64,000 nt of DNA, from NCBI GenBank assembly GCA_022447065.1, contig JAKUUM010000006.1, positions 761 to 64,760 of the forward strand, read 5' to 3'. The notes beneath the pieces are model-generated. The model saw nothing but the letters and a program-made list of their open reading frames with translations. It had not been told where the DNA came from and did no database searches. The position numbers and the translations under genes were made by a program. Every line of letters begins with the position of its first letter. The first letter of the stretch is position 1. Source of the DNA: SAR86 cluster bacterium. GTDB taxonomy: Bacteria > Pseudomonadota > Gammaproteobacteria > Magnimaribacterales > Magnimaribacteraceae. Shown piece by piece: positions 36,290-51,311 of this stretch.

Positions 36290-37708
36290 CTACTTTTGTT
36301 GAATTTTACCTTTTGAAATAACAATATGAATATCCTGGGTATTCTTAATCTTCTCAAGTGGGCTACTATTCAAAATTACCAGATCCGCGTATTTCCCAGG
36401 ATCAATCGTTCCCATTTTATTGTCTAAATTGAAAAACTCAGCCGGAGTGATTGTTGCTGACCTCAATGCCTGTAAAGGGGTTAGGCCAGCTTCAACCAGC
36501 AACTCCAGTTCTTTGTGTAAACTATATCCAGGGGTGAGGAAACCAATAGGAGAATCAGTGCCAGCTATGATTTTGACGCCGTGTTCATTAAAGAGGCCCA
36601 CGATTTTCAGGCTCCAATCTTCAAAGATTTTATTGTTTTCCAGCACCGGTTGTTGAGCCAGACTAATAGAATCCGCTTGCCAACTTTCCTGAACTTTTTT
36701 GGGCAGAAATTGATAAGTTTCACGCCATTTACTATCGGCAAAAAATCTTTTTGAGCCAACGGTATTGATGGTTAAGGTTGGGGTTTGAAAAACATCATTT
36801 GCAGCCAAATATTTGATGATCCTAGTGCAGCGTGCTTCATCCACATTTTGTATAGCAATGTATCGCTGCGATTGATGAATCCTTGTTCTAAGCGCAGAGC
36901 CAGGAAGGGAATCTGAATTGTTTAACAACAATTTCCTTTGAGCTAAGATTTCTTCCGCATTTTTTGCACAAGCCAGGTCTAGATTTCTAATATGTTGCAT
37001 GCCATCCAGGCCGGCATCAATGGCTTCAATCAAACCGATGCTAAGAGGGATGTGGCTGGTAACCCGCAGATTTTTTTGTTTAGCAATTTCAAGTAAGTTG
37101 AGAAATGTTTTAGCAGACAACATTTCGTATGTTTTTAGGAAAGTAACGCCTTGCTTCACCAGATCATTGACAACAGCTGCAAGGTCAGTGGCTTCATTCA
37201 CGCCGATAGACAACTCAGGGAAGCCTGGTTCTTGTCCTTTGTACACCCTTAGGCTGCCATCGATTAATGGACCTGAATAAAATAGTCTTGGTGTTTTTTC
37301 TGGATTTTCGTTGGCGTAATCTATAGCAGGTTGCAATTTAGTGAGTACCGCCCCCGTATCACGGATACTGGTAATGCCGTTGGTCAGAAATAATGCATAA
37401 GCTGTTTTGTAATCAAGTTCAGGGATAAAAGTCAGATGCACATGCGCATCCCAAAGACCAGGGATCAGAAATTTACCCTTGGCATCAATAACCTTATCAT
37501 CCATTTTGATATCGATAATCTTAGTACTTGATTCTTCAATTGATTCAATGACACCACCCTGTAATACAACGGTCATGTTTTCTCTGACCGGATGGGCCGC
37601 ATCGATCAGTGTGACGTTTTCTATGATGATCCGGGGTGATGCTAAAGCTAGAGAACTGACTAAAAGAAAAGTGAGCATTAAAGAACGGCAAAAAAGACAG
37701 CCCTTCAT
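36290..37708 (-). CDS. Periplasmic amidohydrolase-family metallohydrolase
   Basis: 472 aa with a signal peptide (LMLTFLLVSSLALA), HxH metal motif WDAHVHL and a later GTDSP... region. Confidence 0.7.
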   Translation of the reverse strand: MKGCLFCRSLMLTFLLVSSLALASPRIIIENVTLIDAAHPVRENMTVVLQGGVIESIEESSTKIIDIKMDDKVIDAKGKFLIPGLWDAHVHLTFIPELDYKTAYALFLTNGITSIRDTGAVLTKLQPAIDYANENPEKTPRLFYSGPLIDGSLRVYKGQEPGFPELSIGVNEATDLAAVVNDLVKQGVTFLKTYEMLSAKTFLNLLEIAKQKNLRVTSHIPLSIGLIEAIDAGLDGMQHIRNLDLACAKNAEEILAQRKLLLNNSDSLPGSALRTRIHQSQRYIAIQNVDEARCTRIIKYLAANDVFQTPTLTINTVGSKRFFADSKWRETYQFLPKKVQESWQADSISLAQQPVLENNKIFEDWSLKIVGLFNEHGVKIIAGTDSPIGFLTPGYSLHKELELLVEAGLTPLQALRSATITPAEFFNLDNKMGTIDPGKYADLVILNSSPLEKIKNTQDIHIVISKGKIQQK

Positions 37709-38598
37709 GATCTCCTTCTGTTCAGATGTTTCAACAGCAACTGATCATAGCGACTCTTATCACTATCGTGACCAGGCCGCACGAAAGGCTCCCACTTAGG
37801 CGGTATCCCCTTAGGAGTGTCTCCCATTACGGTGACACGCTGTACCACCCTTTCTTCGTCAAAGTCATTCAGAACCTTGTGTTGGGTACAACGGTTGTCC
37901 CACATAGCTATGGTACCTGCCGCCCAGTGATAACGCATCGTGAAGCTTGGTGTTGCAATCCATTGAGTAAGGTAACCGAGCAAAGATTCACTCTCACTGT
38001 GACTTAGCTCTACGATACGGCGTGTGAAATGTTCGTTGACAAAGAGGGTTTTCTTCCCCGTTACAGGATGGGTGCGTACCACGGGGTGAATAGTCATATC
38101 ATCTGGGTGTCCATGAGGAGCCGCGTTGTGAAGAGCAGTGAGCCCTTGGCATAAGTCACGCAAGGGTGTGGAAAGTTTCTCTAAAGCGAGCTCTGGGTTG
38201 GCCCACAAAGTATCACCACCTATTTTAGGGCACTTAACCATATTGAGGATTGAAAAGAGTGCAGGGTTGGGTCGAAAAGTGATGTCTGAGTGCCACTCGT
38301 CCGCAACACCACCCCGACTGGCAACGAGTTCGAAGATCTTGTCATGCTCGGTGATCGGGTTCTCATAGTGGGGGTGTCCCTCAAGGTCCCCAAAAAGGGA
38401 ACCAAAAGCGACATGTTCATCAACACTGAGAGCCTGATCCGGAAACAAAAGTACTTTATGTTCGATCAGCAGATTTTCGATTGCAGAAGCTCCTTCAGCG
38501 TCCAGTATAGCGAGTTTGACGCCACGAATTTCAGCCCCCAGAGCCGAAGACAGGCGCTTTACCTCGAGGGATTGTGGGTCGAACTTCTGCGTCTTCAT
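37705..38598 (-). CDS. TauD/TfdA-family Fe(II)/2-oxoglutarate-dependent dioxygenase
   Basis: 297 aa. WHSDITF (HxD of the facial triad), the distal His in GTIAMWDNRCTQH, and N-terminal LGAEIRGV typical of TauD. The stop overlaps the next gene's start by 4 nt. Confidence 0.8.
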   Translation of the reverse strand: MKTQKFDPQSLEVKRLSSALGAEIRGVKLAILDAEGASAIENLLIEHKVLLFPDQALSVDEHVAFGSLFGDLEGHPHYENPITEHDKIFELVASRGGVADEWHSDITFRPNPALFSILNMVKCPKIGGDTLWANPELALEKLSTPLRDLCQGLTALHNAAPHGHPDDMTIHPVVRTHPVTGKKTLFVNEHFTRRIVELSHSESESLLGYLTQWIATPSFTMRYHWAAGTIAMWDNRCTQHKVLNDFDEERVVQRVTVMGDTPKGIPPKWEPFVRPGHDSDKSRYDQLLLKHLNRRRS

Positions 38599-38608
38599 TC
38601 AGCTTCTC

Positions 38609-38647
38609 CTATTCAAAACTCTTCTTCATGTACCTTAAAGTATAACT
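38609..38647 (-). promoter_or_regulatory. Conserved leader element, copy 1: TATACT -10-like hexamer plus a 6-codon mini-ORF (MKKSFE) upstream of the TauD-family gene
   Basis: The minus strand reads AGTTATACTTTAAGGTACATGAAGAAGAGTTTTGAATAG. The mini-ORF stop TAG overlaps the AGGAG SD of the main gene. 29/33 nt are identical to copy 2. Confidence 0.45.
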
Positions 38648-38695
38648 TCTATCTTGGTCTAAACTGCTTCTGTGTACCGCGTTAACCATTCGAAG

Positions 38696-39379
38696 CTATT
38701 TTGACGAGTGGTCGTGTTTGCTGTGATCATGTTTTTCTGGCTCTGGGCGCAAGTCTTCAGATTGTTCCGAATCATCGTTTTCATAATTGTCATCATAATG
38801 GCTTGGGATTTCGATGGCTTTACCATCATGTGATTGCTCACTATTTGTTGAATTATCAGTGTGATGCCCCATTCCTTTCGCTCTTGCCAATAAATCCTGG
38901 TACTGGGTTACACCAAGATCAGGCAATTTCTTTATGAACGCCACAACCGGCCAAATGGAGTCATCATCATGCGTTGCACCCCACGCAGGCATACCAGTCA
39001 TTTTGATACCATGCTTAGTTACCCAAAATAGTTCAGCAGATGACATTATCAATGCAGATTCCGAGAGATCAGGTGGAGGAGGATTCAACCCCAGGCCCAT
39101 TGCCTCAGGAGATTGGCCGGGAGCGCCGTGACATCCGAGACACATCTCACTGAAGTCATTAACACCGGCAAGGACCAAAGCGTCATCATGGAGATTTGGC
39201 ACGTTGATATCCTTAGCCGAGCGTTTTATCGAAGCATGAGAAGTCGTCGAAAATAACCAATTGGTGATACTGCTATGTGGTGAGCTTGCACTAATATCAT
39301 AGATACCCGAATACGCAAAACTGACAATAACTAATACACCGATGGTGACGACAATAATAAAAGATCTAATTTTTTTCAT
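38696..39379 (-). CDS. Membrane-anchored mono-heme c-type cytochrome with a His/Asp/Glu-rich C-terminal tail
   Basis: 227 aa with an N-terminal TM, heme motif CLGCH and HGIKMTGMPAWG (Met-ligand region). The tail reads GMGHHTDNST...EKHDHSKHDHSSK. Confidence 0.7.
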   Translation of the reverse strand: MKKIRSFIIVVTIGVLVIVSFAYSGIYDISASSPHSSITNWLFSTTSHASIKRSAKDINVPNLHDDALVLAGVNDFSEMCLGCHGAPGQSPEAMGLGLNPPPPDLSESALIMSSAELFWVTKHGIKMTGMPAWGATHDDDSIWPVVAFIKKLPDLGVTQYQDLLARAKGMGHHTDNSTNSEQSHDGKAIEIPSHYDDNYENDDSEQSEDLRPEPEKHDHSKHDHSSK

Positions 39380-39835
39380 AATTATCTCTGTATTTGTTTT
39401 CAGTTTAATATACCTTGTGTGGAGTCAGTATTCCTGTGTTTGATTACTTTGACAGTCCATAAAATTCAGCCATCAGAATAGATGCCTGTTCCGTGTGTAG
39501 CTGCTCTGATAAAACATTTCTCAACAGTTGAGTTTAAGTGCTTGTTTCTAGACTTACAGCTAGAGAGGGTAGAATAGAACAATTAATTGAGAGAATTATC
39601 CAGAAATGATTATGAACATATTATATTTGGTTGTGGGATTAATATTAATATCAATACCTACTACGATTTTTGCTGAGGGCATGTGCCTTTGCATTGTAAG
39701 GTCTTTCCTAGGCTTCTAAGACATATTAAAAGAAATCACATAGACCTCACCTGCATCAGTAAGTGTGTTGTGCTGCTGTTTGTATACTTTAAAGTGTAAT
39801 TTCCTTTTCGGTCTAATCTACTTTGCTTATAAGTC

Positions 39836-47087: not shown

Positions 47088-47196
47088 TTCTTGTTTCTCT
47101 AACTGTTCTTTACATTATTATTTAACCAACTTAGTGGTTAAAAAGCATTTTTTTTGAGAAGATGAAAACTATAAATTACTTAATAAGGGAGGATGT

Positions 47197-47523
47197 ATGG
47201 CCAGTTTTGATGAACTAAAAGAGCAGGCAGAAAAATCTTTTGTGCCCGACGGTGCTAAGGGATTGCAAGCAACTGTCCAATTAAACATAGAAGGTTTAAC
47301 CAATATGTTTTACGAAATTAATGATGGAAGCCTTAGCGTCGGAGAAGGGGATCATGCGGACCCGGACCTAACCTTAACCTTTGATAGTATCGAAACCATG
47401 GAAAAAGTTTTTTCTGGTGATCAGGCAGCGGCGATGCAAGCTTTTATGACTGGTAAGGTCAAGTTTACTGGGGATATGGCATTAGGACAAAAACTAGGTT
47501 CAGTTTTTAAGCCACCAAAATGA
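47197..47523 (+). CDS. SCP2 sterol/lipid-binding domain protein
   Basis: 108 aa. The C-terminal MTGKVKFTGDMALGQKL is typical of SCP2. Confidence 0.7.
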   Translation: MASFDELKEQAEKSFVPDGAKGLQATVQLNIEGLTNMFYEINDGSLSVGEGDHADPDLTLTFDSIETMEKVFSGDQAAAMQAFMTGKVKFTGDMALGQKLGSVFKPPK

Positions 47524-47594
47524 AGGAGCTCTATGGTCCATGAGAGAATGTGGATGTGGACCGATCCGAAGTCTTTCAAGGGGTCCTAAAGAGA

Positions 47595-48488
47595 ATGGAA
47601 ATGTTGTTACGTTGGACAACTATTCTTTTCTGCACCACATTACTGTTGGGGACGGCTTGGGTGCAAGCTGAGGCACCGACACACCACTACTTTACAGCTT
47701 CCGATGGAGTGAACATCCACTATATGCGGTTGGGCGATTCGGGCTCGCACGTGGTTTTGATCCACGGCTATACTGGCAGTGCAGAGGGCAATTGGTTCCG
47801 CAATGGGATTGCTAAATCTTTATCTACGAATCACCGCGTCGTTGCTATTGATTGTCGTAATCACGGTCAAAGTGATAAACCTACCCCACGCGGATTTGGA
47901 ATCCCTTCTGACGTGTTGGAACTGATGGATCACCTCAAAATCGAAATGGCACATATTCACGGCTATTCAATGGGTGGCGCGATTACTGGACAGCTACTGG
48001 CGTCAAATCCCGAACGTTTCATCACTGCCGCTTTCGGAGGATCAGGTATCCGTGAGTCCGATCCATCTTGGGTGGCCAAAGTACCGGCGGATAAGGAGGG
48101 CAGGGATCCGCAGGAAAGCGAAGTAAGTCGTGCACTCAGGATCAGAAGTGCTATGGACAACGGCATGACCCGTACGGAGGCAGAAGAAGCAGCGAGTGTT
48201 CCGCGTCGACCGATCATGGACTCAATCACCAGCAGTCAACTAACTGCTTTAAGGCGGAGATGGGTTCTTGAGATCGATCTAACAAAGGTCATGATTCCTG
48301 TACTCGCGATCAACGGCGAATACGACAGTCCCTTATCCAAGACACACCGTATGTCTCGAGAGTTACCAAATTTCACCAACGTCGTGCTTCCCGGCAAGTC
48401 TCACCTGACGGCCATTGTCGGAGGCTATATGCCCGATCAGTATCGCGAGAGCCTAGTTGATTTTATCAACTCGAATGACCTGGAATAA
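47595..48488 (+). CDS. Secreted alpha/beta hydrolase, encoded in a G+C-rich block
   Basis: The track ORF starts at GTG 47550. The ATG at 47595 gives signal peptide MEMLLRWTTILFCTTLLLGTAWVQA. HGYTGS oxyanion region and nucleophile elbow GYSMGG. Confidence 0.75.
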   Translation: MEMLLRWTTILFCTTLLLGTAWVQAEAPTHHYFTASDGVNIHYMRLGDSGSHVVLIHGYTGSAEGNWFRNGIAKSLSTNHRVVAIDCRNHGQSDKPTPRGFGIPSDVLELMDHLKIEMAHIHGYSMGGAITGQLLASNPERFITAAFGGSGIRESDPSWVAKVPADKEGRDPQESEVSRALRIRSAMDNGMTRTEAEEAASVPRRPIMDSITSSQLTALRRRWVLEIDLTKVMIPVLAINGEYDSPLSKTHRMSRELPNFTNVVLPGKSHLTAIVGGYMPDQYRESLVDFINSNDLE

Positions 48489-48521
48489 TCCTTCGGCTTA
48501 AGTACTCAGGAGGGTTTTTAG

Positions 48522-48641
48522 TTAAAGTCTTAGGGCATCAGCCGTGGTAAGAGCCGGACTTCGCTGGATATCTTCCGCGGTAATTGTGGCCACAACCGCA
48601 GCCGAGTTAATTGTATCTCTCTTCATCCTTGATCCGGTTAC
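48522..48641 (-). pseudogene. Fragment resembling the start of a TonB-dependent receptor plug domain, read through from the thioredoxin-like gene
   Basis: The extension reads VTGSRMKRDTINSAAVVATITAEDIQRSPALTTADALRL. It resembles the plug consensus (..vsvITaedIqrs.a.tladaLR..). Nothing TBDR-like follows the stop. Confidence 0.35.
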
Positions 48642-49241
48642 TTTGTACTTAACGGAGCAACCGTAAGGTTTGCTTACCTTGGTTGTGACTACTTGATTGC
48701 TCTGAATTTCTTTGAGAGCATTTTTAACGTAATTATCTGCTTCTAACAGATTCTTAAAATTGAATCCTCTGCCGCCAGCATCATCAATTGCACCTTGGTA
48801 TCGAAGAATTCCGCTAGCGTCAATAACGTACATATGGGGAGTGGTTTTAGCTCCGTACATTAATCCCACATCTCCCTCAGGATCAAATAGGACATGCTGA
48901 GGTAAAGCATTTCTAGAGGTGGTTAATTCATTGGCGGTATCGGGGAGAACATAACCTTGGGTGCCTGGTGCCGAAGAAATTATGGTTAGCCAAATGGCAC
49001 CACCTTCTTTAGCGTATTCTTGGGTACTCTGCATATTTCCAGTTTTATAATGTTTAGCGACAAATGGACAGTCGTGATTTGTCCACTCAAGGACCACGGT
49101 ACTTCCAGAAAAGTCTGATAAGGAAACGGTCTTCCCAAAGGAATCCACTAAAGAAAAGTCAGGCGCTTCCGCATCTGTTATCACAGAAGCTTGAACGAAG
49201 CTAACACAAAGTGAAATCAATGCTGTGAATAAATATCTCAT
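48522..49241 (-). CDS. Periplasmic thioredoxin-fold (redoxin-like) protein with an aberrant 39-aa C-terminal extension
   Basis: Signal peptide MRYLFTALISLCVSFVQA. VLEWTNHDCPFVAKHY and KPYGCSVKYK, where members of this family that I recall end. The ORF then continues a further 39 codons into G+C-rich DNA. Confidence 0.7.
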   Translation of the reverse strand: MRYLFTALISLCVSFVQASVITDAEAPDFSLVDSFGKTVSLSDFSGSTVVLEWTNHDCPFVAKHYKTGNMQSTQEYAKEGGAIWLTIISSAPGTQGYVLPDTANELTTSRNALPQHVLFDPEGDVGLMYGAKTTPHMYVIDASGILRYQGAIDDAGGRGFNFKNLLEADNYVKNALKEIQSNQVVTTKVSKPYGCSVKYKVTGSRMKRDTINSAAVVATITAEDIQRSPALTTADALRL

Positions 49242-49253
49242 CGGCCTGTTTCT

Positions 49254-51311
49254 TTAATTAATTTCAGTAATAAACCCTACTAACATGTCCTCAGTTAATA
49301 ACTCAGGTAATATTATGGGCTCTCCTTGAGAGGGAAACAATAGGTAAAGCGGTACGCCTGTTCTTCCATAGCGGGCAAGCATCAGAGCTATTTCAGGATC
49401 TTTGCGTGTCCAGTCTGCCTTTAAGTAGACTATGTTCTTATCGGCTAAAATTTTCTTAACCGATTCTCTATTAAGCGCTATAGCTTCATTTACCTTACAA
49501 GTGATGCACCAATCGGCAGTAAAATTTAGAAAGACCGCCCGTTGATTCAATCTCAGATTTTCTAGTCTTTCTGCACTAAACGCATATTCATTTCCTTCTA
49601 TTTCTGCAGGGCTTGCCTTGTAAGAAGTAGGGATAAGCCAAAGTGAAAATGCCAGTAGAATGACAGAAATAAAAAGCGCAAAGCTTCTTGAGAGTCCTTG
49701 CGAATTTTGTGTCTTTTCCAGTAGCCAAAGACCTGCAGCAACAAGCAATGCACCGATAAGAACTGCAAAAACGGATTGGAGCTCTACTTGGCTGCTTAAG
49801 ACCCAGGTAAGCCATAATGCAGATCCCCACATAGGAAAAGCCATGATTTGTTTTAGGGTTTCCATCCACTCTCCAGGTTTGGGTAGTTTAGACAAGAGCT
49901 GAGGAAAAATACTTAACGTCAAGTAAGGAAGTGAAAAGCCTATCCCCAAGGCCAAAAAGATAAATAACGACCCTAAGCCGGGTTGAAGAAAAGCCATCCC
50001 TAAGGCCGGACCCATGAAAGGAGCTGTGCAAGGTGAAGCTACCACTACAGCCAGGGCGCCTGTTAAAAAAGAACCTGCGAGGTCTCTTTGGCCTTGAGCT
50101 AGGACACCAAATTTTGCCAACTGGCCACCCAAAACTAAATTGCCCATAAAAACTATTCCGACTGCTACGAACAAATAAATAAGAAGTGAAATTATCAGTG
50201 GAGATTGCATTTGGTAACCCCAACCTATCGAATCTCCAGTTGACCTTAAAAAGAGAAGGAGACCCGCCACAATAAGGAAGGTTGTTAAGACACCCGCAGA
50301 AAAAACAAATCCATGTTGCATCATCTTTTCTCTAGAGCCTTGGCTTTGCTCAATAAAGCCCAGTATTTTTATAGACAATATAGGGAAAACGCAGGGCATT
50401 GCGTTTAATATCAGACCGCCCAAGAAAGCAAAGAGGAGGGCAGTAATTAAATTCAAACCCAGAGGAGAATGATCAGCCTTGTCACCTAGAGGTAAATCTA
50501 AATTATAGTATTCTGAATCACCATCAGAATTGAGTTTTAAAACTCCCTTCAGGTTTAGTGTTTTAACTTGAACTTCTGCTGGAGTAAGTTCAAGGCTGAA
50601 GCTTCTATCATTCCTTTCTAATTTTTGATTGGCGACATAGCTAATGAATCCATATTCAGCAGGAAAGAAGTAGGCACTTGATATTTGTTGAGCCTCCTCT
50701 CTTTCAAACTGCAAGAATATCTTGTTATCTAGGATGCTAACACGATGAGGAGAAGATAAATCTGTTGGAACTGTTCTTTCCATTTCCCTTAACAGCGAAG
50801 TGGATTGATTTTCAGATTTCAAGCCTTGATAAAGTTTTATAGATACTTCTCCCTCTTGGGGTAGGCAAACATCTTTGCATGTAAACCAAGAAACTTTTGC
50901 TCCAATATTTACTGGATAAGAAATGGTTCTAGGACTTGTAATCTTGGTCAATAACAAGGCTTCGTCTTCATAACCATAGGTCATTAAAGGCTCTACCGGA
51001 ATTTTTGTAGGTCCAGGCCACAGAATCTCTGAAGCTTTAAATCCTGGAGGCAATTCCCATACAACAGAGGCACCTGCACCAGCATCTCCTGGATTTTCCC
51101 AGTAAGTGTGCCATCCTGGGTTAAGCTCAAACTTAAGCCCGACCAGTATTGTTTCACCAGTGCTTATCTCATCAGATTCTGCAATAAGGGACAAACTTGA
51201 TTCTCCAGCATCAAAAAAAGACTCGGCTGTAATAGAATTAGAGAGCAAACTGAAAAACAATAAGAAAAGGCTTACCCTAAGGTAACTTCTATTCGTATAT
51301 AATTTTTTCAC
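49254..51311 (-). CDS. DsbD/ScsB-family protein-disulfide reductase
   Basis: 685 aa. N-terminal periplasmic domain (WFTCKDVCLP), a TM core with CVFPILS and SPCTAPF, and a C-terminal thioredoxin domain DWCITCK. Confidence 0.8.
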   Translation of the reverse strand: MKKLYTNRSYLRVSLFLLFFSLLSNSITAESFFDAGESSLSLIAESDEISTGETILVGLKFELNPGWHTYWENPGDAGAGASVVWELPPGFKASEILWPGPTKIPVEPLMTYGYEDEALLLTKITSPRTISYPVNIGAKVSWFTCKDVCLPQEGEVSIKLYQGLKSENQSTSLLREMERTVPTDLSSPHRVSILDNKIFLQFEREEAQQISSAYFFPAEYGFISYVANQKLERNDRSFSLELTPAEVQVKTLNLKGVLKLNSDGDSEYYNLDLPLGDKADHSPLGLNLITALLFAFLGGLILNAMPCVFPILSIKILGFIEQSQGSREKMMQHGFVFSAGVLTTFLIVAGLLLFLRSTGDSIGWGYQMQSPLIISLLIYLFVAVGIVFMGNLVLGGQLAKFGVLAQGQRDLAGSFLTGALAVVVASPCTAPFMGPALGMAFLQPGLGSLFIFLALGIGFSLPYLTLSIFPQLLSKLPKPGEWMETLKQIMAFPMWGSALWLTWVLSSQVELQSVFAVLIGALLVAAGLWLLEKTQNSQGLSRSFALFISVILLAFSLWLIPTSYKASPAEIEGNEYAFSAERLENLRLNQRAVFLNFTADWCITCKVNEAIALNRESVKKILADKNIVYLKADWTRKDPEIALMLARYGRTGVPLYLLFPSQGEPIILPELLTEDMLVGFITEIN

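Follow-up and report, generated by a model that had tools for sequence, protein, structure and literature searches.

A probable two-step scar of illegitimate recombination between convergent genes of a SAR86-type genome

A G+C-rich block between two convergent genes

The stretch of DNA analysed here, which we call the window, comprises 64,000 nucleotides of one contig (G000:C47:761-64760) of a SAR86 cluster bacterium, whose assembly of 1.55 Mb in 50 contigs has a guanine-plus-cytosine (G+C) content of 37.1%. Its positions 47524 to 48641 form a G+C-rich block that holds one complete hydrolase gene and a short piece of a TonB-dependent receptor gene, the latter read as a 39-residue tail on a periplasmic redoxin that is encoded on the opposite strand. 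The features of the locus are listed below in window coordinates; G003 is a related genome, L031 a contig of the same population, L032, L036 and L037 are contigs of a sister lineage and L034 belongs to a third lineage.

47197..47523, plus strand: SCP2 sterol-carrier-like gene, the native left flank (Pfam SCP2, 54 bits; synteny conserved with G003)
47523..47528, no strand: AAGGAG, what is left of the native 10-nt spacer between the stops (junctions aligned for the window, L031, L032, L036, L037 and L034)
47529..48499, plus strand: foreign hydrolase cassette, homologous over its full length to that of the sister species and made up of a 5' leader, the coding sequence and the 11-nt conserved 3' flank TCCTTCGGCTT (alignment with L032, L036 and L037)
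47550..48488, plus strand: secreted alpha/beta-fold hydrolase coding sequence (Abhydrolase_1, 69.2 bits; Abhydrolase_6, 49.6 bits; GYSMG)
48500..48521, no strand: 22-nt filler AAGTACTCAGGAGGGTTTTTAG (no alignment to the 3' flank of the sister lineage)
48522..48524, minus strand: new TAA stop of the fused redoxin gene, at the joint of receptor piece and filler (sequence)
48524..48641, minus strand: ectopic 118-nt copy taken from the 5' region of a gene for a TonB-dependent receptor of about 940 residues (83% nucleotide identity to G000:C2:46296-46413)
48642..49241, minus strand: native periplasmic redoxin core of the AhpC/TSA-type thioredoxin fold, residues 1-200 (AhpC-TSA, 48.3 bits; Redoxin, 41.2 bits)
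49254..51311, minus strand: DsbD/ScsB-type thiol:disulfide transporter, the native right flank (Pfam DsbD_N, DsbD_TM and Thioredoxin_7)

The full fused redoxin open reading frame (ORF) runs from 48522 to 49241 on the minus strand, convergent to the hydrolase gene, and encodes 239 residues with their own signal peptide; one peptide within the tail is DTINSAAVVATITAEDIQR. The DsbD gene lies upstream of the redoxin gene as its operon partner, and this synteny is kept in G003 and in all population contigs.

The original prediction for this stretch, made from the letters alone, had placed a composition shift at 47523 and 48641. By composition count, positions 47524-48641 contain 50.2% G+C, against a genome mean of 37.0% (standard deviation 2.9%; 14,948 overlapping 1118-nt windows), with the hydrolase coding sequence at 50.5% (G+C at third codon positions, GC3, 0.52) and the 120-nt tail at 50%. 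The flanking genes are poorer in G+C (SCP2 41.9%, redoxin core 41.8%, DsbD 40.7%, PhyH 37.4%), and GC3 is 0.34-0.36 in SCP2, the redoxin core and DsbD. In a 200-nt profile, G+C rises at 47500-47600 and falls at 48600-48700, so that the predicted jump and drop are both present, but the inserted DNA begins only at about 47529, the letters AGGAG at 47524-47528 being native spacer. G+C is somewhat elevated already inside SCP2. A single other locus, on C7 at about 9.1 kb, reaches 50% or more in the same set of windows, which makes the block the second richest 1.1 kb of the genome. The other G+C-richest 1.1-kb stretches (47-50%) lie at about 37500-39400 of the window (G000:C47, about 38300), a cytochrome c / TauD / amidohydrolase block, at about 12800 on C3, at about 127000 on C1 and at about 9100 on C7, the C7 locus alone equalling the hydrolase block; these stretches may represent additional foreign insertions or else RNA genes.

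The block in natural populations

We found the exact 239-residue fused protein on 92 contigs from NCBI, JGI, Logan and ENA (146 index blocks). The complete layout recurs in ten contigs of 36-99 kb (L051-L060) and in one of 15 kb (L031), which come from at least 11 samples and several assemblers. All 11 contigs have the order DsbD > redoxin-239 > < hydrolase < SCP2 > PhyH and follow the window collinearly, free of indels and 99.7-99.9% identical in sequence. There are 58 segregating sites, 13 of them within the hydrolase gene and others in the flanks too, and nucleotide diversity is 0.004 in the hydrolase gene versus 0.001-0.0055 in the flanks. Such recurrence marks the block as established in a widely sampled species.

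These observations dispose of the alternative that the original prediction had named, an assembly or binning chimera in which the assembler joined a G+C-rich block that is present in no cell. Although the genome is a 50-contig assembly and the receptor piece is a dispersed repeat of 83% identity, both of which would favour a chimera, the same structure occurs without indels in 11 further contigs from different samples and assemblers, polymorphisms lie inside the block, and the fused protein is exact on 92 contigs. Both flanks are, in addition, perfectly syntenic, and two precise misjoins would be required. We regard the probability of a chimera as practically negligible.

The tail of the redoxin is a receptor gene fragment

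In 40 related genomes, orthologous matches to the 239-residue protein stop at or before residue 205, nearly all of them at 200-202. Among the best 120 protein clusters (clustered at 90% identity) from a collection of 5.8 billion proteins, only the query's own cluster has 239 residues; the other 119 are 170-206 residues long, nearly all 201, and none of them shares the tail. One redoxin cluster among these 120 carries the name 'redoxin domain-containing protein [SAR86 cluster bacterium]'. Genomes and clusters alike agree with the original prediction that this thioredoxin-like family normally ends at ...KPYGCSVKYK.

Alignment of the locus to relatives revealed the empty site, as had been anticipated. 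At 11 loci from several genera, the redoxin ends in ...PYGCSVKY[KAS][SGI] and its stop codon, followed by 1-12 nt to the SCP2 stop. Gene order in G003 is identical to that of the window (DsbD, a redoxin of 201 residues, the convergent SCP2, PhyH and ATCase), with the two stops 1 nt apart. In most SAR86 relatives (empty sites L002-L012), only 1-12 nt separate the ends of these two convergent genes, a distance that leaves no room for terminators, so that the transcripts must overlap or end within the opposite gene.

The 39 residues that follow the redoxin core in the window correspond to receptor residues 41-79 or thereabouts (VTGSR...ADALRL), in the native receptor frame. They are homologous to the N-terminal region of bona fide receptors of 936-949 residues (73-88% amino acid identity) that have a Plug domain and a TonB_dep_Rec barrel, with 58-83% amino acid identity to the matching residues of receptors of about 940 residues in related genomes (70-83% within the family). 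The 118 nt match the genome's own receptor gene at 83% identity and the G004 receptor gene at 78%, the sole matches in 266 genomes of the order. When the tail was embedded in the genome's own receptor sequence as the query and scored over the tail region only, the matches among the 5.8 billion proteins were all Plug-plus-barrel receptors of 916-949 residues, at 74-88% amino acid identity. It is this direct alignment that bears out the predicted likeness to the start of a receptor plug, more than a search with the Plug model (PF07715), which gave a partial match (profile positions 4-30 of 107, E = 0.012) of 16.5 bits, below the 23.9-bit cutoff. With that score and 27 of 107 positions, the tail was rejected as a member of the Plug domain family.

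The receptor reads ...EVEEVVVTGSRIKRD...ADILRLSTYN; of the EEVVVTGS TonB-box region, the copy includes only the stretch from the second-last valine onwards, and it ends after LRL. Homology ends after 118 nt, and the rest of the block gives only chance-level short matches to the genome's own receptor gene, in keeping with the earlier observation that nothing receptor-like follows; a 22-strand beta-barrel after the plug is accordingly absent. The genome's own receptor gene is intact and encodes 938 residues, and the piece is therefore a copy, not a translocation.

The source orthogroup consists of receptors of about 940 residues (G000:C2:46161-48990, L030:4165-6993, and L044-L050). In the contigs examined for two related receptors, P0178 and P0179, the gene lies in the conserved context Lon - HU - PpiD-like - SDR - receptor - Opp-type binding protein (SBP_bac_5) and permeases, and the sizes and order of ORFs around the genome's own copy match this context, which suggests that the source receptor is a core outer-membrane gate of an oligopeptide ABC importer.

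The redoxin core itself belongs to the AhpC/TSA-Redoxin family (PF00578 / PF08534), scoring 48.3 bits for AhpC-TSA and 41.2 bits for Redoxin against cutoffs of 26 and 26.6. All residues that are invariant in 26 homologues are kept, including C58, C195 and the C-terminal PYGCSVKY; only the last residue, S201, is replaced. In an AlphaFold model from a 26-sequence alignment, per-residue confidence (pLDDT) is mostly 83-97 in the core and 31-38 at residues 202-239, the low values coming from an alignment without any depth in the tail. Compared with six receptors, the tail shows six derived changes that are unambiguous; four of them are nonsynonymous and fall at positions invariant in those receptors (T>A, E>Q, Q>R and Q>P); judged from this comparison, the pattern is one of lost constraint. 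Because the tail begins two residues ahead of the end of the TonB box and covers only about a quarter of a Plug domain, it cannot fold as a plug. Together, model and comparison indicate that the tail is most likely a tolerated, disordered and probably functionless appendage.

We also considered whether the fusion was selected, with the tail kept as a handle of TonB-box or plug type for binding to TonB or a receptor barrel, or as a C-terminal signal for degradation or targeting of the periplasmic redoxin. Such a function could be read into the fixation of the tail in a globally sampled population, into the lack of frameshifts and single-nucleotide polymorphisms (SNPs) in its 120 nt (the 118-nt receptor piece has zero SNPs in 12 population contigs), into the three known 239-residue protein variants, which differ in the core only, and into the junction KYKVTGSR, which retains the VTGSR end of the receptor's EEVVVTGSR TonB-box region. 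But, given the diversity observed, only about 0.3 SNPs would be expected in 120 nt, so that observing none is uninformative on selection; the tail has nonsynonymous changes at positions invariant in receptors, no other redoxin in the best 120 clusters bears it, no structure is predicted for it, and it spans 27 of 107 Plug positions. A selected function of the tail is in our view very improbable.

The hydrolase gene is foreign to the clade

The original prediction of a complete, secreted alpha/beta hydrolase in the block holds. From the GTG at 47550 the protein has 312 residues, other gene callers choosing the ATG at 47595 or 47601 (297 or 295 residues), and its N terminus resembles a signal peptide (...LLRWTTILFCTTLLLGTAWVQA/EAP). 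Its scores of 69.2 and 49.6 bits and the GYSMG motif, a G-x-S-x-G nucleophile elbow, place it in the alpha/beta-hydrolase fold (PF00561 / PF12697); against NCBIfam it gave only generic alpha/beta-fold matches, all specific equivalogs staying far below their cutoffs. Like the redoxin, it is an ordinary member of its fold.

In 40 genomes of the SAR86 order, the hydrolase finds only partial matches of about 110-130 residues at up to 39% identity. Its nearest relatives in a large protein collection are 99% identical (same species) and 85% identical (cluster P0002, sister lineage). Cluster P0004, at 74%, comes from marine contigs of 52-53% G+C, where it lies beside amidase, amidohydrolase and carboxylesterase genes. 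The closest relatives in named genomes are from Candidatus Sumerlaeota (71%), Thermoanaerobaculia (67%), Solibacter (64%), Nitrospirales (62%) and Sedimentisphaerales (59%), and identities range from 56 to 71% across metagenome-assembled genomes of Sumerlaeota, Acidobacteriota, Nitrospirales and Planctomycetota. The hydrolase gene is thus foreign by its 50% G+C and GC3 of 0.52, by the low identities in 40 relatives and by closest named relatives in other phyla, a distribution that supports a gain from outside Proteobacteria.

No hallmark of a mobile element accompanies the gene. Neither the block of the window nor the sister cassette has terminal inverted repeats, and the hydrolase is the only complete gene, which led us to reject an insertion sequence, a transposon or a miniature inverted-repeat transposable element. 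No significant hairpin lies 3' of the hydrolase gene in the window or in the sister lineage and no integrase is found among the neighbouring ORFs, as would be looked for in an integron cassette, although no dedicated attC model was run. A consensus scan found no promoter-like site upstream of the coding sequence and no terminator-like site, and the sequence between the convergent stops, examined for a terminator- or attC-like hairpin, folds no better than shuffled versions of itself (z -0.7 and -1.7). Depending on the start codon chosen, the hydrolase starts 26-77 nt past the SCP2 stop, and it probably rides on the SCP2 transcript, to judge by this arrangement.

Elsewhere in the genome the hydrolase leader does not recur, and a proposed portable promoter/RBS repeat at 38.6-40.6 kb of the window is unrelated in sequence to both junctions. 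At 47535-47604 the leader contains a 23-nt direct repeat (GGTCCATGAGAGAATGTGGATGT / GGTCCTAAAGAGAATGGAAATGT, 74%), and an out-of-frame upstream ORF of 18 codons, with its ATG at 47533 after AAGGAG, ends 5 nt before the ATG at 47595; the sister species is 6 nt shorter in the leader. Repeat and upstream ORF may reflect translational coupling or a mere local duplication.

A sister lineage points to two probable events

Contigs L036, L037 and L032 of the sister lineage carry a hydrolase that is 85% identical to that of the window at the protein level, between PhyH, DsbD and redoxin genes of 88-92% DNA identity. The sister hydrolase shares the left junction at the SCP2 stop, with an alignment that runs through TGAAGGA(G/A)A(G/A)CTCTAGGG and TGAAGGAGCTCTATGG. 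In L036 and L037, the redoxin ends natively in ...KPYGCSVKYKS and its stop codon, and no receptor piece is present. The sister cassette has the left boundary TGAAGGAGA/GCTCTAGGG and the right boundary CCCTTTTAAGGAGA/TGCTTTAGC, which show a direct repeat of 7 bp, AAGGAGA, whose left copy is represented in the window by the AAGGAG at 47523-47528; microhomology-mediated insertion could also make such a repeat. The third lineage, L034, which lacks the hydrolase, reads TTGAAGGAGATGCTTTAGC, and from this and the sister junctions we deduced the empty site TGA-AGGAGATGC-TTA. Synonymous divergence (dS) between window and sister is 0.60 for the hydrolase, 0.51 for PhyH, 0.40 for the redoxin and 0.26 for DsbD. 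The hydrolase value is in the range of PhyH and the redoxin, so the cassette predates the split of the two lineages.

On the 3' side, homology between window and sister continues for 11 nt past the hydrolase stop, after which the sister's next 63 nt, including the last codon and the stop of the redoxin, are replaced in the window by 140 nt, made up of the 22-nt filler and the 118-nt receptor piece. The joint of redoxin and receptor piece (...TACAAAG/TAACCGG...) shares at most 1-2 nt. At the joint of receptor piece and filler (AGACTTT/AACTAAAAACC) the TAA stop arises, with the last two bases of the filler giving its AA. The filler has no significant fold. The receptor piece differs from the genome's own receptor by 17% (raw divergence), a value that fits an event at the time of the split or later, provided that the piece evolves neutrally. 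Because the sister holds the hydrolase with the redoxin stop intact and without a receptor piece, the hydrolase insertion did not delete the stop; a later, second event did. The proposal that one event had removed the stop codon is thus not supported, although the scar itself is genuine, with the native stop lost, the receptor piece fused in frame and a hydrolase that is foreign to the clade. Nor was a single foreign fragment inserted, as the receptor piece belongs to a SAR86 core orthogroup and is closest to the genome's own gene, whereas the relatives of the hydrolase are in other phyla.

These data lead us to read the locus, with a rough probability of 0.7, as the scar that two steps of illegitimate recombination left at a variable site. 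In the first step, before the sister species split, a distant lineage with a higher G+C content would have supplied a promoterless hydrolase cassette of about 1 kb, which would have entered the 10-nt spacer between the convergent stops, probably by illegitimate or microhomology-mediated insertion and with duplication of 7 bp (AAGGAGA); the hydrolase would thereby have become a downstream passenger of the SCP2 transcript. In the second, younger step, confined to the species of the window, about 63 nt between the 3' flank of the hydrolase and the last redoxin codon would have been exchanged for the 140-nt patch, of which 22 nt are filler and 118 nt were copied from the SAR86 core receptor gene, most likely the genome's own copy or that of a near relative. 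Joints with about 1 nt of microhomology may point to break repair with captured filler DNA, or to an outsized patch of SPDIR (short-patch double illegitimate recombination). The receptor piece would have landed by chance in its native frame, so that the redoxin read on for 39 residues to the TAA made at the joint, and the fused variant would then have gone to fixation in a widely sampled marine population.

Besides the shallow alignment behind the low pLDDT of the tail, several points weigh against this reading. A blastn-short search of the filler against the whole assembly returned chance matches only, and the order of events, as reconstructed from sequence, depends on one sister lineage and parsimony. 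The receptor piece has 51% G+C, compared with 38-42% for the same stretch in all related receptors sampled, and its polarised changes comprise five from weak to strong base pairs (W>S) and none in the reverse direction (S>W). Such a drift is unexpected for a neutral copy of an AT-rich own gene and gives a hint of an unsampled, G+C-richer donor or of co-arrival with the hydrolase. An excess of W>S changes is also present in DsbD on the window lineage, with a single, AT-richer outgroup, and is therefore confounded as an explanation of the G+C content of the tail.

Co-arrival would be the essence of one composite insertion, in which hydrolase, filler and receptor piece came in together and the sister later lost the piece and regained the native redoxin end by recombination with an empty site. 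The three parts are contiguous and all of about 50% G+C, the receptor piece is richer in G+C than any sampled SAR86 receptor, and the locus is active in recombination, as a mosaic patch in SCP2 indicates. Set against this, the sister keeps the native stop, the 10-nt spacer and the 7-bp direct repeat, features that mark a primary insertion; at the DNA level, the nearest match of the receptor piece is the genome's own gene, while the hydrolase has its relatives in other phyla, and an extra, precise restoration event would be needed. We consider the composite insertion unlikely.

The SCP2 patch bears on a further alternative. In the 5' two-thirds of SCP2 (47175-47400), identity to the sister is 0.68-0.74, versus about 0.9 for the neighbours. 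The proportion of differing synonymous sites (pS) between window and sister is 0.78 in SCP2, a saturated value, versus 0.22-0.41 in neighbouring genes, and the changes lie mostly on the window branch (44 versus 20 in the sister), with elevated G+C. Identity is back to 0.80 at the 3' end of SCP2, ahead of the hydrolase, and the patch appears to be a small tract that recombined in from a distant relative in a separate event. The same anomalous divergence, together with 50 hydrolase changes on the window branch versus 35, would alternatively be expected if the tract from SCP2 to the receptor piece had been imported as a whole from a divergent relative, anchored by homology in or near SCP2 and closed by an illegitimate joint at the 3' end of the redoxin gene. 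But hydrolase dS (0.60) is near that of PhyH (0.51) and not saturated like SCP2, the recovery of identity at the 3' end of SCP2 sets the patch apart, and a donor that already held the truncated receptor piece would still be required. This homology-facilitated import is in our judgement quite unlikely, and the two-step history remains our preferred explanation.

A hypervariable site beside the redoxin stop

Within a narrow SAR86 clade, four states lie at or next to the junction AAGGAGA(T): the hydrolase (L036 and L037), the hydrolase plus two genes (L032), a pentapeptide-repeat lipoprotein (L034 and L035) and the receptor patch (the window). In L032 (2768-4262), the hydrolase is followed by genes for a secreted, cysteine-rich protein of 229 residues without a Pfam match and a zinc-ribbon membrane protein of 128 residues, whereas in L034 (4607-5784) and L035 (939-2087) a long gene for a pentapeptide-repeat (ANLSG...) lipoprotein stands in place of both SCP2 and the hydrolase. 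This position beside the redoxin stop is hypervariable. None of the four states shows a recombinase or a repeat element, and it seems improbable that the 10-nt spacer between TGA and TTA is a recurrent, sequence-specific site of cargo insertion. If it were, it would represent an unrecognised form of site-directed gene gain in streamlined marine genomes, and the in-frame receptor tail would be a by-product.

Discussion

Both kinds of event in the proposed history, the horizontal acquisition of a single gene and a stop-loss fusion by an ectopic coding fragment, are known. The cassette resembles the single-gene islands of streamlined marine bacteria: one cargo gene of atypical G+C, with relatives in distant phyla and no mobility gene, lies between conserved core genes, and close relatives hold other cargo at the same site. 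It differs from them in the 10-nt gap between convergent stops that it entered, in the 7-bp repeat and in the second event, which altered the end of a core gene.

That second event is like SPDIR, in which a short ectopic stretch from the own genome or from taken-up DNA replaces a resident stretch, with little or no homology at the joints (bioRxiv 10.1101/2023.11.22.568220). According to the summary of 2016 work in that preprint, reported patches measure 3 to about 100 bp. The patch described here differs in having 140 nt, in consisting of two pieces (22 and 118 nt) and in replacing about 63 nt, and the scar is what the proposed mechanism rests on. At the protein level, the fusion is similar to C-terminal extensions by stop loss, in that a conserved protein gains a tail while its core is unaltered, but differs from read-through in that the new codons are an imported coding fragment in its original frame and not former intergenic DNA. 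The tail is homologous to the receptor segment that starts where the TonB box ends and takes in the first strand and helix of the plug; in contrast to a receptor, it has no barrel, signal peptide or full TonB box, and it sits at the C terminus of an unrelated periplasmic protein.

No new molecular system is revealed here, and the value of the locus lies in a well-documented scar with a reconstructable history and in a warning for annotation. For annotators, a 239-residue 'redoxin' with a weak Plug match is an evolutionary fusion artefact and no new domain architecture. For population genomics, the locus is a marker for which close relatives show at least four structural states. It is also a clean and datable natural case of streamlined marine bacteria gaining genes without visible mobile elements, and it shows that a conserved core gene can have its end rewritten by a second illegitimate event that nevertheless sweeps a global population.

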